Of a stretch of DNA of 33,000 nucleotides, positions 2,176 to 31,600 are shown in pieces; the first letter of the stretch is position 1, and the number at the start of each line of letters is the position of its first letter. The translations under genes and the position numbers were made by a program. Origin of the DNA: Dicyema japonicum. Its lineage: Eukaryota > Animalia > Dicyemida. The stretch spans positions 113,324-146,323 of the forward strand of contig RDEW01000047.1 of NCBI GenBank assembly GCA_011109175.1, written 5' to 3'. The notes beneath the pieces are model-generated. The model saw only the letters and a list, made by a program, of their open reading frames with translations. It ran no database searches and was not told the DNA's origin.

Positions 2176-3682
2176 TCAAATTTTACTCACAACATTAACT
2201 CCCATTTCTTCATAATTTTGCCTAGAAATCCACATACTATGAAACGATCCCTAAAATAATAAACAGAGATCCAACCAATGAGGCCAGCACAGATCCCCCA
2301 ACCCAGGGACTGCATTGCACAAATCTCTTCTCGGGAGTATTCATGGGCGTATTCACCTTAATTTTTGTCATCTACAATAAACCCACGTGATATAACAGAA
2401 GATGTTCTTGCCGTCAATTCTCTATACAGTCTGTCTGAGAATCCAGGATAAACACAGTTTCCCCCAGAAATGAGAGTGTTAGCAAAAAGTGCCTAGAATA
2501 AATCCCACAACCAACAGGTCTAATGTCCACATCACTGAACCCAGCACTTGCCATCACCATCCCAACAATCCCAGTCTTTATATTAAGCACACCAAACCTC
2601 AATGAGGATTTCTGCCAATCTGTACCTATCCACCCCAAAAGAACGAATGAGTCCGTTCTGAAACTCATAACTGACTGTTTGCAGTCTTTCTGGGTTGCTG
2701 GGATAACCAAAACACGAACCACTCATAAATAGGATGTTCACAAAACCGTATTACCGAGGAAGCAAAGTCCCTCACAACATTCTACGTAAATTCACGGACA
2801 ACCATGGACATGAATTCTTTGTAGGAATCCGTCAAGTTGGGAACATTGCGTTTTGTAAAACATGGAATTTTCCCTTCGGGGACAGTCGTCTGGAGTAAAC
2901 AAGGCAAAAACCTTAGATTGAATAAGATAACAGTCGTTCAGATCAATCGACATGGAATTCAGAAGCTGTTGGGCTTTCTCAAGCATGGACCTCCCTGCAA
3001 ACGACATTCTGCGGACAGCTGGACATCAGAGAAATTCATACCGTTATTTAGGACATAGCCATCAAATACGGGGTAACTGCTGTGTAGGAATGACCACTTT
3101 CGATCACCAGGGCTGTGGACTTTCCATTGGCAAAACTACAATAACCATCAACCAAACGCTGTGAGAACGGAAGAAGGCCGCGAATAGTAGGCAGGCACAT
3201 GGAAAGTCTCGAACATTATTTGAAGGAGTTTTTCACGTTGAGCTTTGCATGTGTTCTGAAAGTTAGTAGAGAAACTACAGGTTGTTCAGACATGAAGACA
3301 GGATGTTCTGAGGATTCCGTTGAAAGTCCGTAAGAGTAAATATGGGAAACAAAGGTTTCAAAAAAATCCCAGTTTTCGACTATAAATCCATAATTTAATC
3401 ATACTTAGTCCATCACTGTTATGAAACTGTAAAATTTCTCGATTTGAAACGGGAGAAGTAAGAAAATTATTCCCACTATAACATTTTGCAACGGATTCGG
3501 GTCCGTCTGAAGTGAGGAGACTTCGATAGTCAAGCTGCAATTAAAACTGGGAAATACACAAGGCCACTCGTCACCAGCATACCCTATTTTAGTGCTATAG
3601 CTCCCAACGTCTAAAACGATGGCACCAATCTCATCTAATATTTGATGAATTTTGACCAACCTCCACCACAATATTGTCCCAT
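2176..3682 (-). CDS. ACTL6A: Actin-related protein 4 / BAF53 (ACTL6), 14 exons, ~400 aa
   Basis: Starts MGQYCGG|DEIGAIVLDVGSYSTKIGYAGDEWPC|; includes EHPVFMSEQP, EKLLQIMFETFHVPAYY, FANGKSTALVIESG, DVDIRP|ALFANTLISGGN, SPWVGGSVLASL|GSFHSMWISRQNYEEMG. There are 13 GT-AG introns of 26,23,25,23,22,23,22,21,25,22,23,25,25 nt. One base is missing in the G-run at 3070-3073 (the TPVFDGY frame needs one more C). Confidence 0.95.
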
Positions 3683-8339: not shown

Positions 8340-8727
8340 ATTTGCATCCACACAGCGGGTACCCGCTTACAAGATTCACTGGATAACCTGAACTGTTGGC
8401 TTACGAGGAACAACTACACCACAATCCTGAAAAGTCGTGCTCTATGATCTTTACTTCCAATAGAAGATTGACTAACTCGGTCCCTTCATTGACCCTAAAT
8501 GGAATAACAATCCCTCCACAAATTCAACCAAAATACTGGAGGTCACATAGACCCACTAATGACCTTCAGCAAACATGAGAGCAACATAATCTCCTCTTCC
8601 TAGCGAAAATTAAACTTTGTAAAAACGCTACTTGGATACTACAAGAGATGGTCGCACACAACAGTAGATCATATCTACTACCAAATATATACTTCTGTCA
8701 ATCAGTTACTGCTGCGCGGCATGGGGC
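8340..8727 (+). mobile_element. APE-LINE RT C-terminal fragment
   Basis: Reads LQDSLDNLNCWL, NPEKSCSMIFT, LTLNGITIP..PKILEVT*DPLMTFSKH, SYCCAAWG. Confidence 0.7.
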
Positions 8728-9349
8728 TTTTAAATAAATAATATCGCGACATCTTGGTTTTTAAATAAATAATATTTGAAAATCCATTATTTCTACGGTA
8801 AAGAATTTGCGGTTGATAAATTTCAAAATTATCCATGTTAAACAGATTAAAAACATTCAGGTGTCATGAGAGATGTCCCTGAGTAACAGACGGGAAAGAA
8901 AAATCAATGAAAAATTGAATATTTGATATCTTCAGCATGTTTTCTCATAATCTTTGTGTTAATTGGATTACAATGTTGGATGAGGAAATTACATTGAAAG
9001 AGCAAAAATGTGGAAGTGAGTTCATGGCTTGGTTTTGGGCAGCAAATAGTTACAAGGACTAAGTTGTCCGGTTATCCAATCTTGTGTAGTGAAGGATGTT
9101 AAGAAAGAGGTTATAGAGGAATTCCGATATTGTAAAAAATTAAGGATTTTCGAATATTGAATACACTGTAATAAAGTTGACATTCACATAATTTCTTCAG
9201 AATTAAACAATCAACACGACATTGACATTGAGGTCGTCTATTGACAAACTTTTTAAAAAAATTACCCTTGTCAAATTGTTTGAGCTTTTGTACAGTAATA
9301 CAGTAGTTACTACACAAACTCAATATTTATATTAATTACTTCAACATAT

Positions 9350-9563
9350 AATAATAATAACAGCCTTTTTCACGGAGCCGTGGTATTAGCTCCGCATAGG
9401 CAGGACACACACTTTATTTAAGTAAAGAACAGTTAATTTTAACTAATCGTAGAACCAAGGAATGATCTTCACTTCTTTTTTTCTTTTTCTTGTGTGTGGG
9501 TCCTTTCTAGACAATCCAGTTCCGCAGTGAGAGTCCACTGATGACGGCGTCACTCGTCAAGCC
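9350..9563 (-). mobile_element. 214-bp SINE-like retroposon (second copy at 15655-15868)
   Basis: Flanked by a perfect 12-bp direct repeat ACTTCAACATAT (9338-9349 and 9564-9575). On the minus strand it begins GGCTTGACG and ends with a CGGAGC-N10-GCTCCG hairpin followed by a (TTA)n tail. Confidence 0.6.
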
Positions 9564-10289
9564 ACTTCAACATATTTAAAATATAATAACAAGAATAACT
9601 TTGTGGAATTTTTATATAAATTAGTAAATTGTTACCTTAATTTGTATAGTATATATATTCACATAATTATTACATGTATTTAAATAATACATTTAACAAT
9701 AACTGTTGTGTGATCTATACTTGTTTAATATTATTATGGAAGAGAATCGACTTGTTGAGAAAAGGAATATTGACAGTGAATTCCTCTATGAGAGGAGAGA
9801 TCGTCCATCGATTTGGATGAATATAGTGATTAGATCTGAATTTATTTGAATTTTTTTCTGATTTTTAATAATTCGTGATATTATTTATGTCTGAATCGAG
9901 TTAATTCCACGATTCCCTTGCTCGATGAGGTCTGTTCTCGGGACAAATCACAGCTTTTCTAAACTTTATGATTCTGAGATATCTCTAGTTAAACTAATAA
10001 TTTTCTTGTTCTTCATTAGATTTATCCATAGTTATCCAATTTCGTCAAGATTAGCATCCAATGCGTCTTTGTAAATAGCACATTCGGTATCACATGAGTC
10101 CGAGAAGGGGAACGAAAAGTTACATCAATATTTAGGAGATCAAGACATTTATTGTGTTAGAGCTGCGATTTGGTGAACAAGAACTACATCAGTGGTTCAA
10201 CCATTCAACAAATCGGCCACTAGGCTTACTGGTAAGTCACTCCATCAATCTCCAAATTTAACCGAGGAACCAAGCATATGATTACTATG

Positions 10290-10620
10290 GGAGATCAATA
10301 TTGTTTCTATGAAGTTAGGATAAATTTTCCAATTCTCAGCGACTTGGTGTTGTCATTGGGAATTATAACACAAATCTTTTGTTACAAAGCTATTTCAAAT
10401 TAATATTAAAATAAAGAAAATATGGAAACCTCGCTTAGGAAATGTAAGCCTGTAGTGGACTACTGGAGGATGGATTTGGTTGGCACAAACAGACGTTCCT
10501 TCCTTAGATTATATAGTTGTGATTGTTTGCCCGGAGCTTATCAAAGATTATAACCTCACGTGGTTTCCTCCAATTGATGGGGCTTGGGCATCACGTGGTT
10601 TCCTCAAATTGAGAAAAAAA
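10290..10620 (+). other. Possible N-terminal part of the endogenous mononegaviral L gene (also at 17040-17370)
   Basis: LLLQSYFKLILK*RKYGNLA*EM resembles rhabdoviral LLNIY..GD.I..RQGNFSYDL. TGG-G-CAT-CAC-GTG-GTT at ~10583-10600 resembles the conserved WGHPxV motif. The order is colinear with L, but similarity is weak. Confidence 0.35.
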
Positions 10621-10629
10621 TTTGAAAAT

Positions 10630-11490
10630 AATCTGAACGACTTATACATTCTCAATAACCCAAAAAGTCACATCAGAAGCCCGAACAGAGAATCGACTCT
10701 CCTATCTCAAGAAATATCAGTCTCTCCTCATATATCCTCGCCATCATGGAAGGTCATATATGAAATTTTCTCAGACCACAATATGATTTCGATTCAATAC
10801 AAACCTCTTTGACTTCCTCGATTGCCAAGATTAGTCTATAAAAGTCTAAATGTTCCACAAATATTAATATGTTCTCAATAATGTATTGATAAAAACTGGG
10901 AAACTCCATATCCAGCTGGATTAATATCAGATTATCAGCCAAACTTCACAAATAGCATAATATGCTTGATCAAGCAGAGGAAACTACTGAAGCACAAGAA
11001 TATCGACCCTAAAATATTAAGAGTTAATTTCGTGATCACTCAGAAAATAAAAAAAAATAAAAAAAATGAAATGGAAGGAGTTCATATTTTCCACAGACCA
11101 CAGAACCGAAAATAAAAATTATATCCACACCTTATTGACAGAGGCAATTACAAAAAAAGCCGATTGCTAGTATCAGGATCTATAAAATTGTTTTATTAAT
11201 CACTAAAAAATGTTACATACTTTATTAGAATATTGAAAAAAACTAGAATCAAAATCAGATCTTAAGAAAATCAACGCCAACAATGGATCGCTTCAAAATT
11301 AGTTATGAAATAACAATAAACGCCATTTGTCAACCAAAATTAGTTATGCTACTGGGACTGAAACAAATAGCTCGATCTACCACCTAAGAATTTGGAAATA
11401 TTGATACTATATCTTCCTGGACAACATCCTCCTAAACACTATTCTTGGTTGAAGGTTCTGCTAGAACGCGCCAGGATCAAGTAATTAGTT
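10630..11490 (+). mobile_element. LINE ORF2 fragment: APE endonuclease C-terminus, linker and RT start (also at 17380-18240)
   Basis: Reads NDLYILNN...SWKVIYEIFSDHNMISI (APE SDH motif), then IICLIKQRKLL...KWKEF, then ATGTE..SIYHLR. Confidence 0.7.
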
Positions 11491-11529
11491 AGTTGGGTTT
11501 AGTCTTTGGAATAATTTAATTAAGATAGT

Positions 11530-12210
11530 GCTTGGATGTATTCCATAATAAGGACCTAGAGAACACTCTTACATTTTTCTGAATCTCCGAATTTAAAAGA
11601 AATCTGTTAATGGGATTATCGATAATTCAAAATAACGATTACATATGCATCTCACATCGATTATTCAAAATGGTGCAACTATCAGAGGAATCAATTACCA
11701 CACCAATATTTGAACTTTTGGTTGAATAGTGTTTTCAAAACTCATGATATTTTTGAAAAATGTATTTACTATTATGATTGGCATACATTGTGGATGAAGA
11801 TCATGTATACACATAATATGAAAGATTTGTTTTCATTATTGAATGGACAGCTGGGGGGCTCGAAGGTTTAAGGCATAGATGATGGTGTGTGAATTCGATT
11901 CTTACGATCCTTGATAAATCCTGCAATCATAAATCATAAATATGATTGTTTTAGCTCTGGCTAATATCAAAATTACCTGTAGTACTCATCCTCTCTCATC
12001 CCCTGAACATTCTGAATCACAGAGTAGAGAACTCGAGATTTTTGAATAAAATGGTGAGAATAAAATTGGATTGAAAATGAAAAAGACACAGACATCACCT
12101 GCACTTATGGTTTATGGAAAAGTTCCAATGTTTACGGAGATGGCATTACGTGACACCAAAAGAATGAGTAGAAAAGCATCAATTAATAATTAAGAGGCAC
12201 CAAATCTCAG
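11530..12210 (+). other. Endogenous viral element: rhabdovirus-like L (RdRp) core, copy A, pseudogenised
   Basis: ASHIDYSKWCNYQR (11647-11688) matches VSV motif A ANHIDYEKWNNHQR. KTHDIFEKCIYYY matches RTHEFFEKSLIYY. GQLGGLEGLRHR*W (11845, one frameshift) matches GQEGGLEGLRQKGW. VLALANIKITC (11948) is a decayed VLAQGDNQVIC. KIGLKMKK..YGKVPMF..DTKRMSR (12062-12172) matches KLGLLIN..YGKIPIF..ETKRWSR. Confidence 0.9.
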
Positions 12211-12269
12211 GACAAAACAAAGAATAAAAATGAATTGATAATCTAGAAAAATATACCAATTTACAATAA

Positions 12270-14150
12270 CCAGCAGTATTCAAACTACGACTTCAAACAT
12301 CAGGAATCCGTCATATTATGTTTTCCGCCAAGTTAATTGCCTTTGATAAATGTAGAGGAAAAATTCGTCCTATTGCTGTTGGGTTTGTTTTTCGTCGATT
12401 GGCTTCTAAACTTGCTAGCAGAGCAATCCTTCCGATGCTTGTCAAACAACTGCGACCAATCCAAGTAGGGGTCGGTACTCCTGGTGGATGTGAGGCGGCG
12501 GTTCATGCCGTTAGGATGTTTACTGGAAACAGAACGAACATGCCTTGTGTGGTCTTCAAGATTGACATAAAAAACGCCTTCAATACCATACGGCGCGATG
12601 TAATTTTGGAAGATTGTCTTACCCATTACCCGTCTATATATAATTATATTCATTGTTTGTATGGAAAACCGTCCAGTCTTGTACATGGAGAAATACTTCA
12701 TTCCCTCGTCGTGTGGGTTCACAAGGAGACCCACTAGGACCGGCATTGTTCTGCCTCGGTGTCGACCGTGTCATGAGATGCCTTACTACTCCGCTGAACG
12801 TGTGGTATTTGGATGATTGCACCCTGGGAGGTCATCCTAACAATGTATATGACTGTCTACAGAGATTACTAACAATTGGATACGCTTGGTTTAAAGCTAA
12901 ACGCATCCAAATGCGAAATTGTTAATTATGGATTCTCCCGATATGAATGGAATCGGATCCTATTAATGTTTCGGGGGATTATTCCTAAAATATCGGAAAT
13001 CGAGCCGGATCATTTGGAAATACTTGGATGCCCTCTGGCTGAAACTGGAATTAACGACACTCTGTTGGCTAAAGAACAGCAACTAAGAAAAACTTTTTTA
13101 CGCCTTGGGATGCTGGATGCACATACCTCTCTTTTTCTCATGAAAAACGCTTTATCCACGCAGAAATTAAATTACGTCCTTCGAGGAGCTCCATGTTACC
13201 TGAAAATGCAACAACTCGGGGCGATTGACTCCCTATTCCGGTCTACGACCGAACGTATTACTAATGTCGAATTCGACGAACAAGGATGGGAACAAGCAAC
13301 CTTGCCCGTTCGCTTTGGTGGACTCGGAATTCTCTCACCATCTGATTTAGCACACCCGGCATATCAATCCTCATTGGACTCCAATCAGAATTTGATCATG
13401 ATGATTCTCCAGCTCCCATCAGAGTCGTCAAAGATCGAAGATTTGGTACACCCTAAAGTCAAACAACTCGGGCAGAGAGACCTTTATGAGTCTGTTTGCG
13501 AGGATAAATACGAGAGGCTTTTGAAAATATCTAACCAACACCGACGAGCCTGTCTTTTAACTGCAAGATGCGAGTGGAGCGGGGCTTGGATCAATGCCCT
13601 ACCCATTGGAAACGTGGGAACTCACCTAGACGATGAAACGGTCCGCACCGGAGTCTCCATCAGACTTGGATTGAAAGTTTGTCAACCCCATGAGTGCCGA
13701 TGCGGCCGGAAGGTCGACTGCTATGGACATCATGCCCTTTCTTGTCGAAAAAGCGCAGGTCGATTCGCTAGACACAAGGCTATAAATGAAGTGGTGAAGC
13801 GCACCCTCGAGTTGGCGGGATACCCATCCATTCTAGAGCCAACGGGCTTGAGTAGGGATGATGGGAAGCGACCCGATGGAATTACTGTCTTCCCCTTCTC
13901 TCGGGGCAAATGCTTAATTTGGGATGCTGGCTGTACTGACAGCTTTTCCCAGTCGAAACATTTGAGGTCGGCAATGAAAGCGGGAGAGGCCGCCCGTTTA
14001 TATGAAAACTCAAAAATAAAGAAATACAGGAGCCTCCTAAACCGTTTCCATGTACAGCCAGTGGTCGTCGAGACGAGCGGAGTCTTTGGCCCCAAGACGG
14101 TCTCTTTCCTTAGAGCACTTGGGTGTCTATTGACCAAAGCCTCGAGGAGC
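12270..14150 (+). mobile_element. CRE-clade non-LTR retrotransposon (RT plus restriction-like endonuclease), truncated at both ends, 2 frameshifts
   Basis: ORFs 12318-12737, 12653-12925 and 12876-14228 carry RPIAVG..RRL, QVGVGTPGGCEAAVHA, DIKNAFN, QGDPLGPALF, WYLDD, GLKLNASKCE, ATLPVRFGGLG, the C-x-C..H..C knuckle, RHKAINE, PDG and WD. The normal QRGNA terminus is replaced from ~14150. Confidence 0.9.
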
Positions 14151-14520
14151 GTCGGGAAAACTGAGTGGCTTGAGACTCTCGCCTCAAAATTGAAAATGAC
14201 GAAGGTCTCTTATACACCCAGGGCATAAACCATCCAACAACGTGACGTACGCAATCATCAACATATATATTTCTCCTTCAAGTTGCTCAAAAGGATATCA
14301 TTCTGACCTCGCTTGGATCTCGTCCCTTAAGAACATAACCGTGTGCGGAGACTTTAATGAGAGGATATTATCTTGACCTTTCGTCCCGGAAGAACCTGTC
14401 GATGGAAAAATGGATCAACGAGGGGAGTATATCTTGTCACAGACTGAAAGCCTTCAAGTCTTAAATCCTCGTGATCGTCTGATTAAATCTTTCGACAATT
14501 CTTTGTGCTCGTAGATTGTT
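14150..14520 (+). mobile_element. LINE APE endonuclease fragment
   Basis: Reads IINIYISPSSC, ITVCGDFN, DQRGEYI..LQVLN. Confidence 0.7.
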
Positions 14521-15600
14521 AGACTTTCCGTGAATTTGCTTAATGTTAAAATCTTCGCAAAGTTTTGTTATTTCTTGATTTTTAAATTCAGAACCATTGT
14601 CCGACTGAAGAAATTTACATGGCCCATTCAGGCGGAACAAAGATCTTACGTTTTCACATACTTCTTTACCAGACTTATTATAAAGTGGTCGTACAAAAGC
14701 GAATCTATAAATTAAAAAAAAACCCAGCCTACTATATATGTCAATGACCGTTAAAATCCATTTGAAATTTCATTTAATGTTGAAAATTTTTTCAGGTCTA
14801 TTAGATCTACCTGAAAACGTTCATTTGGAGAAGAAGCAAACACATGGTGATTTATATCTCCAATCTACAATTATAAAAATCACGAACTTTTAAAGGACGC
14901 AAAAATTTGCAGACTTCACAATTTCGAATGACTTTTCTAATAATCTCATTCTTTACAGTGAAGTATCTTTGTCGTCATTCATACTCAATTTTATTGACTC
15001 CTCCGTGTGAAAACTCGTGCAACGATTTCGCAACATGCTCCATTTCGGTTTCATTATCCAGGGATATGACTAACTTGTGATCAGTTGATTTAAGATACAG
15101 TCTAAAATTATTGAAAATTTACAATACCTGTCATTGATAATAGAAAAATTCTCTATCTTCTTTACATGCCTATATTTCGGTGCCTCGGAAGATTTTCGGG
15201 AAATTTATCATGCAAAGCATCAATCTTTCACAAAACCCTTGAAAGAAGCCATTGCAACAAAATAATCTTCCATGCTATAAATCACGCTAGAAATCTAGGT
15301 TTACCGCTATAAAAAATAAAATCTTTATAATCATAACATTTATGAATAAAAACTAATTTAACAGGATTAAATCACGATATAAATCGGATATATAAAATTA
15401 AATGTCGGATTATCCAATGAGGGACTCATCCTTACCTTTGTCGGTCTGGGATCACTTAGTTTAGATGAGAACTTTTTATTTCTTTTTTTTTGACCCAGTG
15501 ATCCTGGGGTAATAATAATAATGTCGGATAATCAAAAGACCTTTTCAAGGTCGAAAAAATGTAACAGGCTGCCCATGCGTTACGCGCCGCCCATGTGACA
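14520..15600 (-). mobile_element. Ginger-type (retroviral-like integrase) DNA transposon, 3'-truncated pseudogene with spliceosomal micro-introns
   Basis: The spliced minus strand gives an HHCC zinc domain (HEFSHGG...CEVC), PNERFQVDLID, WILTVIDIYSR|FAFVRPL and FLQSDNGSEFKN..IKQIHG. Introns 15127-15102 (26 nt), 14887-14865 (23 nt) and 14728-14705 (24 nt, GC-AG) restore the frame. Candidate ATG at 15273; candidate TGT terminus at 15600. It carries a premature stop and frameshifts, and the catalytic Glu region is missing. Confidence 0.85.
15418..15519 (+). mobile_element. ~100-bp 5'-truncated LINE 3' end with (TAA)n tail, inserted in the Ginger 5' region
   Basis: Nearly identical to 16315-16420. 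Flanked by AATGTCGGATTATCCAA (15401-15417) and AATGTCGGATAATCAAA (15520-15536), 2 mismatches. Confidence 0.75.
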
Positions 15601-18600
15601 TAATACAGTAGTTACTACACAAACTCAATATTTATATTAATTACTTCAACATATAATAATAATAACAGCCTTTTTCACGGAGCCGTGGTATTAGCTCCGC
15701 ATAGGCAGGACACACACTTTATTTAAGTAAAGAACAGTTAATTTTAACTAATCGTAGAACCAAGGAATGATCTTCACTTTTTTTTTCTTTTTCTTGTGTG
15801 TGGGTCCTTTCTAGACAATCCAGGTTCCGCAGTGAGAGTCCACTGATGACGGCGTCACTCGTCAAGCCACTTCAACATATTTAAAATATAATAACAAGAA
15901 TAACTTTGTGGAATTTTATATAAATTAGTAAATTGTTACCTTAATTTGTATAGTATATATATTCACATAATTATTACATTTATTTAAATAATATACAAAC
16001 CTTTCCACGATATACAAACAATTCATCCGACCAACGATGACGTATGCAAGTCCTTCATGGGCAATGCAAATGTCACGATCTTCCACATTGAAGTTATCTG
16101 CAATCGAGGAGACTGCAATGAGGTTAATTGGACAGACCACAACCATCCAACCTATTGAAAATTTTTAATTGAAATACAACGAAAACTATTAAAGGAGGCT
16201 GTTCTACGAGCTGCCCTCTATTCCAAATACTATCGAATTATCTACAATCATACAGAAATTGTGAGCCGATGCCATGTCCTATGAGAAGAGCTGTTCAGGA
16301 TTCTCGACCCCGCCGGACTCGTCCTCACCTTTGTCGGTCTGGGATCACTTAGTTAGATGAGAACTTTTATTTCTTTCTCTTTGACCCAGTGATCCTGGGG
16401 GTAATAATAATAATAATAATTTATTTAAATAATACATTTAACAATAACTGTTGTGTGATCTATACTTGTTTAATATTATTATGGAAGAGAATCGACTTGT
16501 TGAGAAAAGGAATATTGACAGTGAACTCCTCTATGAGAGGAGAGGTCGTCCATCGATTTGGATGAATATAGTGATTAGATCTGAATTTATTTGAATTTTT
16601 TTCTGATTTTTAATAATTCGTGATATTATTTATGTCTGAATCGAGTTAATTCCACAATTCCCTTGCTCGATGAGGTCTGTTCTCGGGACAAATCACAGCT
16701 TTTCTAAACTTTATGATTCTGAGATATCTCTAGTTAAACTAACTAATAATTTTCTTGTTCTTCATTAGATTTATCCATAGTTATCCAATTTCGTCAAGAT
16801 TAGCATCCAATGCGTCTTTGTAAATAGCACATTCGGTATCACATGAGTCCGAGAAGGGGAACGAAAAGTTACATCAATATTTAGGAGATGAAGACATTTA
16901 TTGTGTTAGAGCTGCGATTTGGTGAACAAGAACTACATCAGTGGTTCAACCATTCAACAAATCGGCCACTAGGCTTACTGGTAAGGTCACTCCATCAATC
17001 TCCAAATTTAACCGAGGAACCAAGCATATGATTACTATGGGAGATCAATATTGTTTCTATGAAGTTAGGATAAATTTTCCAATTCTCAGCGACTTGGTGT
17101 TGTCATTGGGAATTATAACACAAATCTTTTGTTACAAAGCTATTTCAAGTTAATATTAAAATAAAGAAAATATGGAAACCTCGCTTAGGAAATGTAAGCC
17201 TGTAGTGGACTACTGGAGGATGGATTTGGTTGGCACAAACAGACGTTCCTTCCTTAGATTATATAGTTGTGATTGTTTGCCCGGAGCTTATCAAAGATTA
17301 TAACCTCACGTGGTTTCCTCCAATTGATGGGGCTTGGGCATCACGTGGTTTCCTCAAATTGAGAAAAAAATCTGAAAATAATCTGAACGACTTATACATC
17401 CTCAATAACCCAAAAAGTCACATCAGAAGCCCGAACAGAGAATCGACTCTCCTATCTCAAGAAATATCAGTCTCTCCTCATATATCCTCGCCATCATGGA
17501 AGGTCATATATGAAATTTTCTCAGACCACAATATGATTTCGATTCAATACAAACCTCTTTGACTTCCTCGATTGCCAAGATTAGTCTATAAAAGTCTAAA
17601 TGTTCCACAAATATTAATATGTTCTCAATAATGTATTGATAAAAACTGGCAAACTCCACATTCCAGCTGGATTAATATCAGATTATCAGCCAAACTTCAC
17701 AAATAGCATAATATGCTTGATCAAGCAGAGGAAACTACTGAAGCACAAGAATATCGACCCTAAAATATTAAGAGTTAATTTCGTGATCACTCAGAAAAGA
17801 AAAAAAAGAAAAGAAATGAAATGGAAGGAGTTCATATTTTCCACAGACCACAGAACCGAAAATAAAATTTATATCCACACCTTATTGACAGAGGCACTTA
17901 CAAAAAAAGCCGATTGCTAGTATCAGGATCTATAAAATTGTTTTATTAATCACTAAAAAATGTCACATACTTTATTAGAATATTGAAAAAAACTAGAATC
18001 AAAATCAGATCTTAAGAAAATCAACGCCAACAATGGATCGCTTCAAAATTAGTTATGAAATAACAATAAACGCCATTTGTCAACCAAAAATAGTTATGCT
18101 ACTGGGACTGAAACAAATAGCTCGATCTACCACCTAAGAATTTGGAAATATTGATACTATATCTTCCTGGACAACATCCTCCTAAACACTATTCTTGGTT
18201 GAAGGTTCTGCTAGAACGCGCCAGGGTCAAGTAATTAGTTAGTTGGGTTTAGTCTTTGGAATAATTTAATTAAAGATAGTGCTTGGATGTATTCCATAAT
18301 AAGGACCTAGAGAACACTCTTACATTTTTCTGAATCTCCGAATTTAAAAGAAATCTGTTAATGGGATTATCGATAATTCAAAATAACGATTACATATGCA
18401 TCTCACATCGATTATTCAAAATGGTGCAACTATCAGAGGAATCAATTACCACACCAATATTTGAACTTTTGGTTGAATAGTGTTTTCAAAACTCATGATA
18501 TTTTTGAAAAATGTATTTACTATTATGATTGGCATACATTGTGGATGAAGATCATGTATACACATAATATGAAAGATTTGTTTTCATTATTGAATGGACA

Positions 18601-19002
18601 GCTGGGGGCTCGAAGGTTTAAGGCATAGATGATGGTGTGTGAATTCGATTCTTACGATTCTTGATAAATCCTGCAATCATAAATCATAAATATGATTGTT
18701 TTAGCTCTGGCTAATATCAAAATTACCTGTAGTACTCATCCTCTCTCATCCCCTGAACATTCTGAATCACAGAGTAGAGAACTCGAGATTTTTGAATAAA
18801 ATGGTGAGAATAAAATTGGATTGAAAATGAAAAAGACACAGACATCACCTGCACTTATGGTTTATGGAAAAGTTCCAATGTTTACGGAGATGGCATCACG
18901 TGACACCAAAAAAATGAGTAGAAAAGCATCAATTAATAATTAAGAGGCACCAAATCTCAGGACAAAACAAAGAATAAAAATGAATTGATAATCTAGAAAA
19001 AT
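15601..19002 (+). repeat. Segmental duplication, copy B (contains an extra 427-bp LINE insertion)
   Basis: Direct repeat of 9296-12252. The offset changes from 6305 to ~6750 across the insertion. Confidence 0.97.
15994..16420 (+). mobile_element. 427-bp truncated LINE insertion with TSD, present only in copy B
   Basis: Encodes IYKQFIRPTMTYASPSW...KLSAIEETAMRLIG and ends LCRSGIT* plus 3'UTR and (TAA)6. TSD TTATTTAAATAATA at 15980-15993 and 16421-16434; copy A has the empty site at ~9677-9689. Confidence 0.9.
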
Positions 19003-19940
19003 TTTAAAAATTATTATATTTGGCGTTGTGGAAGTTATCGTAATGAAACCGTTTTAGGCTTGCAGATTATTGCACTTCAATAAGATTACGGGTTTTTCTG
19101 TTAGTGTAGCCCGCTTTTATACTTAAATTATCTTATGGGCCCTGGAGCTTTTGAGTTTGACATGCCTGGTGTATATTATCATATATAATCTCTGCAATTT
19201 AAGTAGTTGAAGATCTTCTTGGTTATGATCCAATGTCATATGGTCCAATATAGAATGTATCCAAAATATAGATCTTAACCATGTCTGAAAGAGAAATTGG
19301 AGGAGTATCAAAAAATATACCTAAAATCCAGCAAATCAAATAGACACTCAAATTTTGGACAGAATGTCAAAAATCCCTCAATCGATCAGGGTTATTTGGC
19401 TGAATTGATTCTGCAAGACCTTGGCATAAAAACTTGGTGTTTACAAAAATCCTGCTATTGAAGTGAATTGAAAATACGGTTTTTACGAAAGAATGGCAGA
19501 GTAAATTGTTCTTAACGGTACATCAATATGTCCGGAGACCTAAAATTTTTTTATTGCGGAAGATATTTAACATGAACGTTAAAATTTCTCAATCTCGCGA
19601 AAATGTGGTGAAATCTCTTTAGACAGGACAAAAATGCTTTCATAGAGCAAATATCGATTCAATAAAACATTAGAGGATATTACAAGAAGGGCTGCCAGAT
19701 ATACTGAACCCATCGTCTATATTTTTTGGCAAATTGCACAATTCGAGATCTACAAAGGAATTGTTCTTCATAGCTGGATAAATATCGTAGCAAACTGGAA
19801 GCTAATCAGGGACTTCAACATAATAGAGAAATATGTTAATTCTCAGACCCAAATTCGTTAAGTCATTGAACGCTGTTAAAGATCTCTGGGAGACTGCTTC
19901 ATGCGAATGAGATCGGATTAATCCCTACTTATATGAATCA
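18280..19940 (+). other. Endogenous viral element: rhabdovirus-like L, copy B, running from the RdRp core into the capping (PRNTase) region
   Basis: Carries the same motifs as copy A (motif A at 18398), then colinear DLLGYDPM (19212; VSV LLMMHDPA), EREIGGVS (~19287-19310; DPSIGGVS), TLKFW (19344; SLSFW), NCSS*LDKYRSK/WKLI/GTST (19759-19820; [22 protein letters not shown]) and IGLIPTYM (19912; RGPLPAYL). Many stops and frameshifts. Confidence 0.85.
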
Positions 19941-20338
19941 TTATTTATTAGGATTACTTAGTTAGAGGAAAAAATGGTCCCCAGCTTACTAAATGATCCC
20001 AAAATCACCAGGGGAAAGTTAGGAGACCTGATTTTAGGTTGATCGCCCCCACAAATTTTTGTTTTTGTTCTAATAGGAGTGCTACCACAAATAAAGATTT
20101 GAAGTTGGAGTGACGCCTCTATTGTCAGCTTTTTGGATTTGGATTTTTTTATATGGGAGAACAGGAAATTTCCATTGACCCAACACACTTTTGTAGGTTT
20201 ATGTCGGGTGACATGTTGGTTATATATGGTGGATAAACAAATGCCATATCTCCAAAGCGAAAGGTCTTGGAAAGCAAAGTAGATTAGTAAATAGTTTAAG
20301 AAATTAGTGGACTACTCAATTTTATAGTAAGAAATATA

Positions 20339-21941
20339 TTAATCACTCCATTCATCAGAGGATTCACTATCATCGGAGACAAGTTCTTTATGACGATTTT
20401 CAATTGCCTTTCTTAGACTGGCAGCGAATCCACCCATTTCTTCCTTCACGCCAGCCTTAGTATTTTCCGTAACCTTGATATATAACCGAGGTTTTAAACC
20501 TTTTTTAAATCGACTCCTTTCTGGATACTAGAGAGGAGATCATTGATATTTGATGTAGGGGAATGGTTTACTAAATTTTTTACCAATGGTATATTGTTTT
20601 CAGAAGTTTCAGAAGATTCTAATTTTAAGGGTTTAGGAGGAAGAGGAGCAAATCCATCAACTTTTTCCTTCGCAACAGCCTTAGTATTTTCCGGAACCTT
20701 AAAATATAAAACCGAGTTTAAAACATTTTTTAAACCGACTCCTTTCCGAATGCTAGAAAGGAGATCATTGATATTTGATGTAAGGGGGTGGTTTACTAAA
20801 ATTATTTCCAATAGTATACTGTCTTCAGAAGTTTTAGAAGACGCTAATTTTAAGGGTTGAGGAAGAGAAGCAATCGCTTTATTTGGCTTATCTAAAAATT
20901 ATCCATTCGACAAACCTTGTTTTAAAACACGTGAAGTAGGGGGAGGAAGTGGTGGAGGGACGAGTTTACTTTCTTTCTGTTTTTTCTGTTCCTTCGGTGC
21001 CGTTTTGGTTTCATGTGATTTTGTATTAGTTGCTGGCTTAAATCGGTGTTGTTTGGATGGATTGTTTGAATTGAGAACTTCCGAGGTGGATAGTGGAATA
21101 TCTGGTGGGGGTGGTCTGTTTTCAATTTTGAGGTCGGATTTGAGTTCTAACAAATAATAAAACTTGAAATTTTTTCAGAGACTAATTAGTATACTTTTTC
21201 GATTGGAAGTTGCAGGGCCTTTAGGTTCACTTCTGTTCGTCTCGATGGAATCATACACTGAATTCAAATTATCAGAATTTTTGATTGTAGTTGGTTTGCT
21301 TCCATCATTTTTAATTTTTTCGACCAAACAAGACTCAATTTTGTTTTTTTTATTTTTTTCCTTTACTTTTCTGCTTTTAGGTGTTTCAGTGCCTGTCTTC
21401 GTTGGTTCTGGTGGATGGAGTTTTTCAACTTTGTTATAAAATACCTTTTACCACTTATTTTCGCTCGCTTTTTCATATTTTGGCTAAAGAAGTCAGCTTC
21501 TGCTTGGTGCATGAAGTTGAGACCATAAATAAACTTCTAATCGTTAATTGAAGCGTTACATTGGTTTCGAATGTGTGAAAGGTAGGGTTCAGTGTAGCGT
21601 AGTTGATATTCCTACCCAAAGTTTCCCGCAGCAAAATACGATCCTGTAATATTAAAAAACTGATACCTGGGGGATGGAACATAAATAAATTGAGTAACAA
21701 CGAGTTCTGTGGTCTTTGACGACCAAGGCAACCCCATCATCGTCAAATTCCCAACTGTCAAAATTTGACTTGCTGGCTCTGAAGATGCGAACTACTCCAG
21801 CACACAAAGACTAAGTTTTGGCCATAATAAAACTTGTCTCCCATTTCCAATAATTTTCATTAGACCAAGGTTATCGTCTTCAGACACAAAGGAGGACCCA
21901 CAATTTACAAGCTTGTTCCGGGTATAGACAGGAGGATTCAT
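20339..21941 (-). CDS. WASL: WASP/N-WASP family actin nucleation-promoting factor (WH1, basic, proline-rich, WH2 x2, central, acidic), ~453 aa, 10 exons
   Basis: Spliced WH1 domain: GNGRQ|SLCAGVVRIF..GVALVVKDHRTRCYSIYLCSIPQ|DRILLRETL..FHTFETN|KFIYGLNFMHQAEADFF. Two WH2 motifs (DLLSSIRKGVGLKN, DLLSSIQKGVDLKK). C-terminus FAASLRKAIENRHKELVSDDSESSDEWSD*. Introns of 23,23,23,23,48 (or 36),24,24,27,26 nt leave an intact 1362-nt frame. Confidence 0.92.
20424..20865 (-). repeat. Intragenic tandem duplication (period 225 nt) of the WH2 module of WASP, introns included
   Basis: The marker gagatc lies at 20761-20766 and 20536-20541. Both units share cccttaaaattag..tcttct, tagtaaacca, catcaaatatcaatgatctcct and ggaaaatactaaggctg. 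Confidence 0.9.
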
Positions 21942-23669: not shown

Positions 23670-24640
23670 ATCAAAAGTGGTCCCCGACATAATCGATGTT
23701 GCGTTGCCTCTCACCATTGCAAAGGAGCCACTGTGTCTAACGTGCGTCGTGGCTTTAAATGTAGCCAGACGTTTTATCTTCTGAAGGAAACCGGTCAAAC
23801 AGCACTTTGTATTTTTTTCTTGGTCTTCATAGCTTTTTCAGAGTATACAGAGTGTCCCGCGCTCCCGTCAATATTGGGCGGACAAAGAGGTCGATGCACG
23901 TGGCATTCCGTCAGGTCGTTTTCCGTCTCCTCTGTCCAAGCCAACGGTTCCAGTATGGAAGGGTATACATCAGACTCCAGGGATCGTTTCACAATTCCGT
24001 TTATCGCCTTGTCTTGGGAATCGTACTGCGCTTCGTCGGCAAGAAAGGGAATATGTCCTTAGCAGTCGACGGTACCACTTGTAAGCCTGGAAAATCTCCA
24101 AAGTATGATGGAGATACTGATGCAGACAGTATCGTCGTCAAGGTGGGTCCCGACTCTTCTGATCGGTAGGGCATCTATTCAAGCGTCACTCCATTCATAC
24201 TTTTCAGTGAAATACAGCCCTTAGTCCAATCATCCAAGTATTACAATTTTAAATGAGTAAAACAACATCCCGTAATACGACCCATTCCGAGGCTGAGTCA
24301 AGTGGATCTCTTTGTTTGACTCCTGATGACAAGGGAATGAAATATTGGCCTTGGAGTAGGTTGGACGTGTACTTAATTGTACACTTGAAAACAATCTTTA
24401 AAATTGCATCACGTCCTATTGAATGTCCGAACAGCATGAACTGCTGCTTCAAACCCACCAGGAGTGCCGACCCTTATTTTAGTTGATTGTAGCTGTTTAA
24501 TAAGCGCGGGAAAGATTGCTTTGCATGCGAGTTTTGAGTGATTCTTTTCTTTTCCCTTGAAGAAACTGCTCTTTCAATACATTCGTGTGTGCAGTCCGCA
24601 ACAGATATACGGGTAGCTTTGGGAATCCTGATCAGGAACC
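23670..24640 (-). mobile_element. Degraded, internally deleted CRE copy (same family as 12270-14150), retaining the 3' end
   Basis: Reads SKLACKAIFPALIKQL..VGTPGGFEAAVHAVRTF, SGVKQRDPL, YLDD, DALPIRRVGTHLDDDTV, DKAINGIVKRSLE..YPSILEP, VRGNATSIMSG. Confidence 0.85.
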
Positions 24641-24779: not shown

Positions 24780-25600
24780 TCTTGTTCAAAACACCAATCG
24801 AAGACTTGATGAATACCGTCTTGGAATCTCAAAGACCTCATTTCTTTGGACAAGGGCACTTCTGATGTTTCACTCGAGTCATTTATTACAAAACTAATTA
24901 ACAGAATGCTTCCAGGAATTCTCCTATAAACACTACTCCCTTCTCACCAAGGAAGAAGAAATATACCGAGATTTATTTTCTGCGGCTTAGTCTTAAAACT
25001 GGCAGGCAGAGCAATCGTTCCTGGGTTCTTCGAACACCTGTAAGTAGGGATCAGCATTCTCAGAAGCTGTAAAGCAACAGTACACGCTGTGTGGATATTT
25101 AAACAGATCAAAGGGAATATTACCTTTGTAATTTTCAAAATTGATATATTAAAAACGCCTTCATGTATCTCTGGAGGACTGTTTCGTACACTTCCCCAAT
25201 GTACGACTATGCAAATAGCTCACGCGGAAAAACGTAAAACCTGAATAACAATCAATGTATTATTCCCGTTATTTTCAATACTTCAACAGGAGAATCTAGT
25301 GGGCCCAGCTCTGTTCAGTCTATAAATAGGTTTTGTCACGGGATGTTGTCTTACGTCTTTGAACATTGATACTTGAGCAATTGCACTATAGGCCACCAAC
25401 CAAACAATGTGTTGGGGAATCTAAGAAGACTAATATTCCAAGATGAGGAGCCTAGTCCTAACACTGTAGGTAAAAAAATGAGACCATCACTTCGAATTCC
25501 CGTAACCTGAATATGATTCGAATCGACGAAGTCACTCGTCAATCCCAGAAGCATCGTAGATGCGTGGAACCTTCAACCGGAACCACTTAGATTACTTGAT
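24780..25600 (+). mobile_element. Degraded CRE copy
   Basis: Reads VGISILRSCKATVHAVWIF..FVIFKIDI, QQENLVGPALFSL and YLSNCTIGHQPNNV (cf. YLDDCTLGGHPNNV). Confidence 0.75.
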
Positions 25601-25799: not shown

Positions 25800-26330
25800 T
25801 TAAATTAGCGAGCACTCTTGGGATTGAGAGCACATTCTCTCTTAGGATTTGTATGGAAATACGCTCACTAAGCCATCCCTCTTCTCAGTAGTCCTCCGTT
25901 TGCTATCAACGATCGATGGCACTTAGGAAAAAAAGTAATTTGGATCCGAAATCCTTGAGGTTTCAGCTGAGGTTAGGTTAAATTGAGAGGCGTCCTAGGT
26001 AATTTATTTCCCGCCATTCCATAGGAAAGGAGTCAGGCTTTTTGTTATTGCTGTCCATTCCGAGAGGCTCCAGTTGTACTGGATATCCAACAGCTTCGAA
26101 CCTTCCCACATCGGCAGGAGAGGACCTTATATTTTTAATGTTGACGATTTTCCCACATTTACACCGCTGACTCACAATCATTGAGGCCGAACGGAATAAA
26201 ATTCCTATTCATGTTGATTTGTTATTCAAAAATGTCTTGAGTGATGAATAGGAAAGAACATTGGTCCCACACTGCTCTCAAGTGTAGATGCAGAAGCTAT
26301 GCACGCTTGCCCACGTTGATCTAATTTTGA
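25800..26330 (-). mobile_element. Degraded CRE 3' fragment (endonuclease region)
   Basis: Reads QRGQACIASA, VSQRCKCGKIVN, EAVGYPVQLEPLGM..KKPDS and ISIQILRENVLSI (cf. ISIAIQRGNAASI). Confidence 0.7.
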
Positions 26331-28234: not shown

Positions 28235-28513
28235 TCAATCGGCTTCCTCATCAAACTCGGTGGATGAGTGGCAATCAGAATTTCTTTGACCTTCAGACCC
28301 GTCAAAAAATAAATCGGAATCACAATTTTCTAGATTTTTGCATTCTTCAATTTTTGAGGAATTCAAAGAAGAAACATAACTGTTATATCGTTCATAAGCA
28401 GCGATAGCGAAATATAAAGGATTTGGACATTGCCATGAATAGTGATCTTTCGAGTGACATTTTTGGCAATGATTTTTTAAAAGTGTAATTTTTTTAGCTT
28501 TCCGCTCCTCCAT
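28235..28513 (-). CDS. Small intronless CCHC zinc-knuckle protein (ZCCHC10-like), 92 aa
   Basis: MEERKAKK..CQKCHSKDHYSWQC (CX2CX4HX4C) followed by a Ser/acidic tail, with an AT-rich upstream tract. A gag-like origin is not excluded. Confidence 0.5.
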   Translation of the reverse strand: MEERKAKKITLLKNHCQKCHSKDHYSWQCPNPLYFAIAAYERYNSYVSSLNSSKIEECKNLENCDSDLFFDGSEGQRNSDCHSSTEFDEEAD

Positions 28514-28673: not shown

Positions 28674-31600
28674 TAATTGGTTGAGCTGGTGACGTGGCTC
28701 TATTGCACACATGTCTTTTTCGTGCTTTTCTTCGGGATCTTTCACTATTAGCTCGTTCAATGTAAGAGGATTAAAGTCGGATACTAAAAGAAGAAATTTA
28801 TGCGTGGATCTTGGATCGTACAAGGTAACCGTGGCGTGCTTACAGGAAACGAAAGTAAAAGGCGGACTAGATGAAATCAACAATGATTTCCGCCTGATTC
28901 TGCACCCTTCAAATTGCCCACACTACGGCATGGGATTTGCAATACAAAAAGAACTGAACAATCGAATCCACAAGACGTGGAGGGTGAGCGATAGAATATG
29001 TGTTTTACAATTAAAATACGGTGAAAGGAACAATTCCATGATCTCCATTATTAATGTATATGCACCAACTTCGGTGAGAGTATCAATCAATGGAGACGAA
29101 CTAGACGACTTCTATTCCTCCCTGTCGCAACTATATGCATTTTTGGAAACATCGTTCATGACATCCATTGCCGGAGATTGGAACGCGAATGCAGGACGTG
29201 GGAGTAGTCACGAAGAATTCATGGGAAGCCATGGAAGGGGATCAGGAACCATTCAGGAGAATCGCTTATCAAATTTTGCAATACATTCAAACTATTTCTA
29301 TGCAACACTGCTTTCAGGCACTCAGCAAGACATAAGACGACATGAAGCTGCTACCGTAAGGACAAATCTGGGACTATCAAGCCTATATATAACCAAATAG
29401 ATTACATTATCTGCAAACAAGCCTACAAGGCACTGCTAACAGATTCTCGGAGCTACAGTGGGACACTAGTAGATAGTCATCACAGATTGGTCGTGGCATG
29501 TTTCTTTTTCAAACGATATTTTGGGGTTTCCAAAGCGGCTGGCATGATGATATCTGAGGGGAGGTTCGCAGTAGAGCAACTCTGCATGGTGGGACCGACT
29601 CGGGAAAGCTATCAAAATACATTGAGAGAAAAGATCAGACAGTGGAATAAAGAAAAAATGCCTGGGGAGCTGTGGCAAGACACCATCGAGGCAATAAAGT
29701 GCGCGGCCCATTCAACAGTCGGAGTAAAACCAAAGCATTTCAACGGGCACTATGACCACGAGCTTGAAGAACTATCCAAATTGCAGAGGAACCTACGTTT
29801 ACAGGTCAAAACCTGCCAGGACCAGGCAAAGGGACACAGTCTAAGAGTCATGCGGAACCAAACCCTGTATAAAATAAAGAAAAAAACGAGGGAAATAAAG
29901 GAAAATAAACTTGCTGGAATGGCTAAAGAAGTAGAAAGACTCAAAAACGGAGCGCAGATGTTCAAGGCTGTTCACCTACTACATAGAGACACGCAGTCAT
30001 CAAAAATCACTATTCATGATCAGTTTGGAAAGACTATGTTAAACAAAAATGAAATTCTATCGGCCATATCCAGCCATTATCAGCACGCCTTCAATCAAAA
30101 CCACGGAGAAAAAATCAAACAATTCGATGGTGAAGCACGAGAACTAAATATTCCGATAACGATTCTGGAAACAAAAAAATCCCTGGACAACCTGAACACA
30201 ATAGAGCTGCTGGCCCTGACAACATAAATGCAGAACTTCTCAAATATGCACCTACCGAGATCTAAAGGCCCCTTAACGAATTTAAGACCCATCGTACTAT
30301 TGACGACTCTACGCAAGACACTATCACTTATAGTGCTGAACAGGATTGGATCTGACATCGAGAACTTTCTCTCTCACGGTCAAAGCAGATTCAGGTCAGG
30401 AGATCTGGGACATCGATGGCTTTGTGCAACACATCAAAAGTACAAGGGGGCTATTGGCATCCTTGGCATGGACATGTCCAAAGCCTTTGACTCTATACAC
30501 AGAGGGAGACTTTTGGATATCTTGGAAAAGTTGGTTGACGAGGACAGTGTCAGAATGATCCGTCTATTACTTGGAACAACGCAGCTAAGTGTACGTTTTG
30601 GAAATTTGGAGTCTGTCCCATTCGAGACAACGTTCGGAGTACCGCAGGGAGATTCCTTGTCACCGGTACTTTTTGTGACATATCTGGAGGCGGCACTCAG
30701 AGACTTCAGACTATTAATTGGCGATCTACCTCAAACTGAAGTGATTTATGCAGATGATATCGACTATATATCCAGCGACGAGAAAACATTAAACTATATA
30801 CGGACAAGGATGCCAGATGTCCTAGAAAAATGGTTCATCAAAATCAATACGGAAAAGACGGAGACAACTACCATACGCCGTGAACTAACCCGAACTGATG
30901 AAAAATGGAGATACTGTAAAAAATTGGGGTCGTTGCTCGGAGACGCTGAGGATATCACTAACAGGAAGATGTTGGCCGTCGCGGCCTTTAGAAAAATGGG
31001 AGTAGTCTGGAATCATCGTAAACAAATTAGCACACAATTACGTGTGAGACTATATAATGCCTTCGTGAAACCAGTCCTAATGTACAACGCTGCAACCTGG
31101 GGTGTCTCAGAAGCGGTAATGGACAAACTAGATGCCTTCCATCGTAAGCAACTCCGACTGTTGCTTGGCATCAACTGGCCGAAAAAAATTACAAACAAGA
31201 ATCTATACAAAGTATGTAATACAAGACCATTGAGTCTGGATATCCTGGAATCAAGATGGCGTCTGTTCGGTCACATCCTTCGAATGAGCCAGATGACGCC
31301 TGCTAAAATAGCAATGGATAACTATTTCTGCCCAAAAGTAAATACCTCGTTCCGTGGAAAACCTCGCATAATTTTGCCAGAGGTTCTACACAAAGACCTG
31401 ACCAATGTAGGACGAAAGCTGAAAACTGGAGATGATCTGGATACGCTCGGAATAACTGCCTGTAACCGCGGAGCATGGAGGAAGTTGGTCAAGAGAATTG
31501 TGGAAAAAAATAACCTGAAGAAAAATACGGCACAAGCGGAACCTTAATTAAATAAATTACATTTTTGGTTCTTCGAAAGTGCTATTAATAATAATAATAA
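28674..31600 (+). mobile_element. Near full-length RTE-clade LINE (APE endonuclease plus RT), with frameshifts, (TAA)n tail and 11-bp TSD
   Basis: Endonuclease: SFNVRGL, ACLQETK, INVYAPT, AGDWNA, QIDYI, SDHRLV. RT: RPIVLLTTLRK, DMSKAFDSI, GVPQGDSLSPVLF, YADDI, KKLGSLL, RLFGHILRM. TSD TTTTAAGATAC at 28663-28673 and 31601-31611. Confidence 0.95.

Follow-up and report, generated by a model that had tools for sequence, protein, structure and literature searches.

The window, that is, the whole stretch of 33,000 nucleotides analysed here, carries the broken remains of a polymerase (L) gene of rhabdovirus type. We regard these remains as very probably a dead L fragment in the host's own DNA, likely inserted by a LINE in the germ line and likely left to neutral decay. 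Rhabdovirus fossils as such are well known; the host lineage is what is new here.

Similarity to rhabdoviral L proteins was found at the level of single frames, of large protein collections and of the DNA itself. When the copy 2 frame at 18377-19000, which takes up two of the three pieces of the fossil, was compared with 177,635 PDB sequences (stops entered as X), the L proteins of rabies virus (residues 611-825, E 7.5e-9) and VSV (residues 598-808, E 4.6e-6) were the only two matches at E<=10. The same proteins headed the four PDB matches at E<=10 of an 81-aa frame of copy 1 taken alone (VSV, E 3.4e-4; rabies, E 4.8e-4), and the last piece of copy 1 (11939..12214) on its own matches rabies L (E 0.0028). 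A search of 1,835,955,588 representative proteins returned 18 matches at E<=0.001 and none at 1e-10; nine of the 18 are named, and all nine are rhabdoviral (European bat lyssavirus, triaenorhabdovirus 2, Dillard's Draw virus, Sclerotinia rhabdovirus 1, perch rhabdovirus, Walkabout Creek virus, Beihai dimarhabdovirus 1, Muscina sigmavirus and Schistorhabdovirus). The best-scoring protein, P0001, is a full-length L nearest triaenorhabdovirus 2 (58% over the core), while P0016, possibly a further endogenous element, is a piece of L of 772 aa from a contig of 61 kb. Alignment of the DNA, with frameshifts allowed, to a profile of 60 out of 150 long L proteins scored 96.8 bits, which none of 60 dinucleotide shuffles reached (mean 13.6, maximum 20.3), and the motif A region is almost identical in wording to rabies and VSV L. 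The decayed rhabdovirus-type L fragment described in the original prediction is thus borne out. The check it proposed with the Pfam model Mononeg_RNA_pol came out partly in its favour: E 5.8e-5 in a single frame, with a score (21.5 bits) that falls short of the curated threshold of 27. Long open frames gave no Pfam match, two word-seeded protein searches with the window frames (the first limited to proteins of up to 2000 aa) gave no match, and a viral-contig scan yielded 19 pattern matches with no relative among them. No Pfam trace of N, P, M or G genes was seen in six frames of 9300-12300 or in the three plus-strand frames of 15600-20000; a decayed fragment need not show other viral genes.

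The recognisable part of the fossil is shorter at its left end than the predicted span of 11530-12210, and in both copies (Table 1) it corresponds to L residues 610-825, with 193 aligned codons and 3 stops in the frameshift-aware profile alignment. On the plus strand of copy 1, HIDYSKWCNYQR begins at 11653, THDIFEK at 11740, YGKVPMF at 12113 and DTKRMSR at 12152; in copy 2, the first three start at 18404, 18491 and 18863, and the last differs by one residue. Motifs A, B, D and E are retained in order and spacing in the colinear alignment to L 610-825. The words of motif B are divided between two frames at ~11850. The place of motif C (~11950-11980) is set only by the residues that flank it; in the aligned frame all five residues of the motif are lost, and GDN is spelled in no frame of either copy. 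Consequently, of the five motifs claimed at the outset, four are present, motif B not as one string, and the decayed QGDNQ listed as an observed motif has to be given up. Nor do all motifs escape the open reading frames, as had been stated, since the first two sit in the 81-aa stop-to-stop frame mentioned above (11626-11871, plus strand).

Table 1. Features of the fossil, of the repeated block and of their surroundings (window coordinates)
Feature	Position	Strand	Basis or remark
Rhabdovirus-type L (RdRp core) fossil, copy 1	11635..12214	+	frameshift-aware profile; L residues 610-825 (European bat lyssavirus numbering)
Copy 1 piece with motif A and THDIFEK block	11635..11849	+	profile alignment
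Copy 1 piece with most of motif B, other frame, one stop	11850..11936	+	profile alignment
Copy 1 piece with lost motif C position, motif D region and YGK..KR block; two stops	11939..12214	+	
Fossil copy 2, stops and breaks same as copy 1; likely other haplotype	18386..18964	+	
Repeated block, first copy, 2.6 kb; L similarity shown only in 580-bp core	9674..12252	.	
Repeated block, second copy	16419..19002	.	
Very high-copy short repeat, left end of block	9296..9689, again 15601..15993	.	
High-copy non-LTR retrotransposon, reverse transcriptase, starts where copy 1 ends	12270..14228	+	RVT_1 E 2.1e-6
LINE-like 3' end, (TAA)n tail, 13-bp target-site duplication, copy 2 only	15994..16418	+	by eye; no Pfam match
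WASP-like gene, 3' part: two WH2 stretches, acidic tail; 24-27-nt introns	20339..21447	-	WH2 E 3.7e-9
ACTL6/ARP4-like gene, 22-26-nt introns	2176..3682	-	human ACTL6A E 1.1e-20

The decay of the fragment is evident in several of its properties. Copy 1 has two frameshifts, near 11850 and 11937; a lower frameshift cost is needed for two others, near 11688 and 11725, to emerge. Of 39 strongly conserved columns the fossil keeps 28, as against 95-100% in 60 natural L proteins, a figure that is partly circular since the same 60 proteins built the profile. If the residues of the source are assumed to have been intact, this amounts to an estimated ~0.12-0.15 substitutions per site (with 2.3 non-synonymous sites per codon), which predicts ~3 stops in 193 codons, the number seen. 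The 193 codons stand against ~2100 in L, a coverage of about one tenth. The fragment cannot make a polymerase, as it lacks GDN, spans a tenth of L and is interrupted by stops and frameshifts.

Only the 580 bp of the core are claimed as viral, since nothing outside it surpassed the negative control. Three tests for an L match beyond the core gave nothing above that control. Local profile scores upstream and downstream fell within those of shuffles, being reached by 49, 25 and 17 of 60 (36, 8 and 3 of 60 in the banded version). Downstream of copy 2, between 5 and 17 of 100 shuffles equalled or exceeded the chain scores and 27 of 100 the block scores, while for upstream blocks 1 and 5 of 100 did so; the negative control, a retrotransposon right of copy 1, did equally well or better (0-3 of 100), which indicates that the chain and block tests are too lax for open frames. 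L-like words had been picked out by eye right of copy 2; that frame has no PDB match, a second frame there has only F-BAR matches at E ~1, and none matches Pfam. No Rfam match was obtained in 8600-20400 and no tRNA within the whole window, while five gene-junction patterns gave only one A-run per copy.

Depth and contigs were taken from four runs (X1-X4) that hold 79-82% of words, all of one sample of one study and none recorded as RNA; they are possibly the source of the window itself and hence not independent support. A small run of a second sample (X5) does not cover the fossil and proves nothing. Contigs of X1-X4 cover both fossil copies, and an 843-base contig of X3, which differs by 2 letters and 1 gap from copy 1 and by 4 letters and 1 gap from copy 2, carries the stops and most of the breaks, so that these are not assembly errors.

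The fossil was originally described as duplicated, and the assembly does repeat the block around it, with 98.84% identity, 21 substitutions (14 transitions and 7 transversions) and 6 gap openings between the copies. The two copies are nevertheless probably haplotypes of one locus that the assembly has set in tandem, because the depth of the block is about 1x and not 2x, copy-specific letters occur at half depth and the difference of 1.2% is at the level of haplotypes. Although contig depth is no copy number, as the tool itself warns, the block stands at 27-34 against 27-32 in the right flank in X1, at 19-27 against 23 in X3 (leaving out one piece at 12.1 with 25 differences) and at 312-438 against 303-338 in X2. 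A true tandem duplication, in which a segment of 2.6-3 kb was copied and a nest of retroelements came to lie between the copies, appears somewhat unlikely. Such a duplication, if fixed, should give an estimated ~1.7x the right flank, whereas X1 and X3 show ~1.0-1.2x; the excess in X2, up to ~1.4x, goes some way towards it, as does the left flank, where depth is lower (X1 23.9, X2 271.5, X3 15.6, X4 10.8), so that the block is at 1.2-1.9x. At position 10909 the letter of one copy accounts for 15.3 of 27.5 in X1, 8.3 of 17.4 in X3 and 10.6 of 22.5 in X4, about half in three of the four runs, X2 having a single contig there. Among the matches listed for the 21 substituted sites, all covering runs read the copy 2 letter at 8 and the copy 1 letter at 2, a mix is read at 6 and nothing at 5, a split unlike that of two equal paralogues; at three further sites most or all runs, among those listed, read a letter absent from both copies. 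In the assembly itself the flanks of the two copies differ and no N separates the copies, and the sequence right of copy 2 has no match between the copies, as a duplication would have it; the intervening DNA, on the other hand, is almost all high-copy repeat. In X3 one contig stops at 19002 and another takes up at 19005, which is the pattern of an insertion allele that X1 and X2, whose contigs bridge 19002, do not share (contigs of X1, X2 and X4 break 31 bases earlier). That the differences look biological, with twice as many transitions as transversions and a LINE insertion with its target-site duplication in one copy only, also speaks for duplication. If the haplotype reading is followed, the repeat is a feature of the assembly, and the duplication cannot serve as an argument against mis-assembly, as had been proposed, since contig depth shows no two genomic copies.

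Judged from its sequence, the fossil is of rhabdovirus type, with no one genus favoured by AU tests. Its identity to the 60 references is 28-36%, and the best references reach 36-38% over 170-188 columns. In an LG+G tree of 40 rows without outgroup (39 references, 171 fossil residues) its neighbours are Beihai dimarhabdovirus 1, triaenorhabdovirus 2 and P0001, its branch measures 2.6 changes per column and sister support is 60/38. A quick mixture-model tree of 39 rows, without Schistorhabdovirus and likewise without outgroup, gave the same place and a branch of 4.5 changes per column. In the AU tests, grouping with three lyssa-like rows had a p-AU of 0.50 and grouping with the other 25 rows a p-AU of 0.56, the constrained tree being slightly better in the latter case, so that neither grouping is rejected. 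The reference set includes neither a named beta-, gamma- or delta-rhabdovirus nor any other member of the Mononegavirales. Such low identity, the very long branch and the lack of an outgroup would fit a source among mononegaviruses outside Rhabdoviridae, or outside all sampled rhabdovirus groups, with rhabdoviruses scoring best through their abundance in databases. We find this improbable: the PDB contains non-rhabdovirus mononegaviral L proteins, and yet none appeared at E<=10 there or among the nine named of the 18 matches, the motif A wording is nearly that of rabies and VSV, and the length of the branch is largely explained by decay. A rhabdovirus-type source thus stays the preferred reading.

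The genes on both sides of the block are those of an animal with micro-introns, as originally predicted. The nearest, 1.4 kb from copy 2, is the WASP-like gene with introns of 24, 26 and 27 nt; it contains two 225-bp repeats, each with a WH2 stretch and a 26-27-nt intron. In the ACTL6-like gene, removal of introns of 26, 23, 25, 23 and 22 nt yields 171 open codons; further candidates measure 23 and 22 nt, and the median of this set, chosen by hand and frame-tested except for the candidates, is 23. Past the five introns, near 3070, the reading frame of the ACTL6-like gene is lost and the match resumes in a different one, pointing to a single-base error in the assembly, which is probably not free of mistakes. 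All host introns read in the window in these two genes are shorter than 30 nt. Such introns are reported, among 51 animal genomes, only for myxobolids (medians 22-27 bp, with 22 nt for two of them) and Dicyema japonicum in the available text of a recent survey, which also gives a GC content of 29.1% for Henneguya (Hadjez et al. 2026, PMC13644364). A length of 26.2 nt is given for 16 Dicyema introns (Aruga et al. 2007, PMC2222250), so that the ACTL6 median of the window falls between the 22 nt of two myxobolids and the 26 nt of Dicyema genes. The GC content of the window (36.8%), its repeat load and the 1.2% difference between the copies resemble values published for a dicyemid, i.e., GC 36.7%, 49% repeats with many LINEs, and 1.24% heterozygosity (Lu et al. 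2019, PMC6736024). On these grounds the host is probably a dicyemid, with a myxobolid myxozoan as the main alternative.

The fossil is an endogenous viral element in host DNA, since runs that look like DNA hold it at the depth of its flank and contigs tile from it into a host gene. The way from the fossil to 20400 is covered by overlapping contigs of comparable depth. From 19640 an X3 contig, 2973 bases long, continues into the WASP-like gene; no single contig spans the distance from fossil to gene. The presence in genomic DNA near host genes that had been anticipated is thereby supported, within one sample. Three traits by which a non-retroviral endogenous element is recognised were found: similarity to viral proteins, host genes and repeats around it, and marks of decay. 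Could the fossil instead be foreign sequence that the assembler attached by mistake, either from a co-sampled animal (the parasite's host) or from a live virus? Admixed host tissue is usual in parasite samples, and the gap in single-contig coverage leaves the passage into the gene to overlaps. This is very improbable all the same, as a sequence with stops and frameshifts and without motif C cannot be that of a live virus, the depth equals that of a flank with a micro-intron gene into which overlapping contigs tile, and the GC content of the core (33.8%) is that of the surrounding bins (31-36%). That the fragment is a domesticated viral gene, its seeming stops and frameshifts being introns of 22-27 nt that are spliced out to give a working protein, is hardly credible: the genome has introns of this size, which mimic frame breaks, but the 580 nt for 216 residues needing 648 are 68 nt short and leave no room for introns, which rules these out as the cause of the breaks, while the frame no longer contains motif C and 11 of the 39 conserved columns are changed.

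Rhabdoviruses make no DNA, and a reverse transcriptase of the host was therefore needed. Insertion was likely mediated by a LINE, whose reverse transcriptase would have copied part of the viral RNA in a germ-line cell of the host; the cDNA fragment would then have inserted into host DNA, presumably been inherited through the germ line, and decayed neutrally. The window is rich in LINE pieces, with reverse transcriptase domains (RVT_1) at 12270-12734 (E 2.1e-6) and 30228-31544 (E 1.3e-25), and the LINE-like insertion with its 13-bp target-site duplication is recent activity of this kind at this very locus. Reading of the flanks identified no tail or target-site duplication for the viral part, the ends of which cannot be fixed. 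LINE retrotransposition is described as the route in mammals, and insect insertions without tails or duplications are described as well, in the available text of Katzourakis and Gifford (2010, PMC2987831). The insertion would have been decaying for roughly 10-15 times as long as the two copies have been apart, given their 0.8% of substitutions and the stops and breaks common to both.

The retroelements around the block are varied. The truncated insertion at 15994-16418 is probably polymorphic, an X3 contig (9535-9997) bridging the empty site; the 3' end of the insertion recurs at 15422-15522. The short repeat at the left end of the block has a summed contig depth thousands of times that of the flank and no Rfam or tRNA match. 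The non-LTR family that begins where copy 1 ends, which may be CRE/R2-like, recurs as decayed copies at 23765-24537, 24972-25203 and 26020-26262 and shows a C-terminal Cys/His motif and restriction-like nuclease words. A nearly intact LINE occupies three consecutive frames at 28693-31547 (plus strand; endonuclease E 6e-4, reverse transcriptase E 1.3e-25), and an integrase core fragment (rve, E 2.1e-8) lies at 14461-14769 on the minus strand, in the repeat nest between the copies. Within the block, a 118-aa frame at 10456-10812 (plus strand) and 17206-17562 looks by eye like the end of a LINE endonuclease, with no Pfam match at E 0.05. Finally, a single-exon zinc-knuckle frame of 92 aa at 28235-28513 (minus strand; zf-CCHC_3, E 2.5e-4) is absent from the protein collection, in which none of nine proteins of the window occurs.

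The fossil points to a negative-strand RNA virus having entered the germ line of such an animal at some time in the past. An endogenous element links a virus to its host better than a virome of mixed tissue can. The meaning of this one is bounded by its being a short, decayed fragment with no sign of function. The view that no virus had been described from such a host needs correction for myxobolids, as a CRESS-DNA element is listed for Thelohanellus kitauei, as intact, in the available text of Dennis et al. (2018, PMC6069186). It holds for RNA viruses, none of which was found for dicyemids or myxozoans among the records listed in a literature search judged by titles and the beginnings of abstracts, most subscription journals lying outside its scope. 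A virome of 31 phyla sampled Dicyemida, and its supplements may list a virus for that phylum (PMC11097642). Literature on rhabdoviruses together with cephalopods and octopus offered nothing relevant.

That dicyemids have a rhabdovirus lineage of their own, neighbouring the betaplatrhaviruses of flatworms and the stem of the lyssaviruses, is unlikely on present data and is put forward only tentatively. If this were so, the grade of parasite-borne rhabdoviruses would reach past flatworms into another phylum, and some rhabdoviruses of cephalopod tissue could belong to kidney parasites. A published cephalopod virome is reportedly rich in rhabdoviruses, and the fossil makes it testable whether those associated with cephalopods belong to dicyemids. 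Rhabdoviruses of parasites have been argued to be basal to those of vertebrates, including lyssaviruses, and several 'fish' viruses to be those of the worms in the fish (Dheilly et al. 2022, PMC9241645).

Among known systems, the fossil is comparable to the genus Betaplatrhavirus, in which triaenorhabdovirus 2 and Beihai dimarhabdovirus 1 are species according to the ICTV summary of 2025 (PMC12451637). These two, viruses of parasitic worms, gave the highest identity and the nearest rows in both trees; the host of the fossil, however, is unlikely to be a flatworm, and the AU tests leave the placement not significant. The L proteins of lyssaviruses are similar in another way, as the best PDB match and the third of 18 in the large search, colinear over 610-825, but identity is ~33%, and the fossil, without motif C and with no N, P, M or G detected, is a genomic relic and not a virus. 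The endogenous element of Thelohanellus kitauei shares with it a parasitic animal host with short introns; that element goes back to a single-stranded DNA virus and is recorded as intact, whereas here the source was a negative-strand RNA virus and the copy is broken. Further counterparts are the rhabdovirus elements of arthropods (Aedes, Ixodes, Drosophila; PMC2987831), which are likewise L fragments in host DNA with weak tree placement, L insertions there grouping weakly with lyssaviruses and, in the available text, having no evident poly-A tail or target-site duplication, as here. The present element differs from them in its host, an animal with introns of 22-27 nt, and in being recognisable over no more than 580 bp and heavily decayed.
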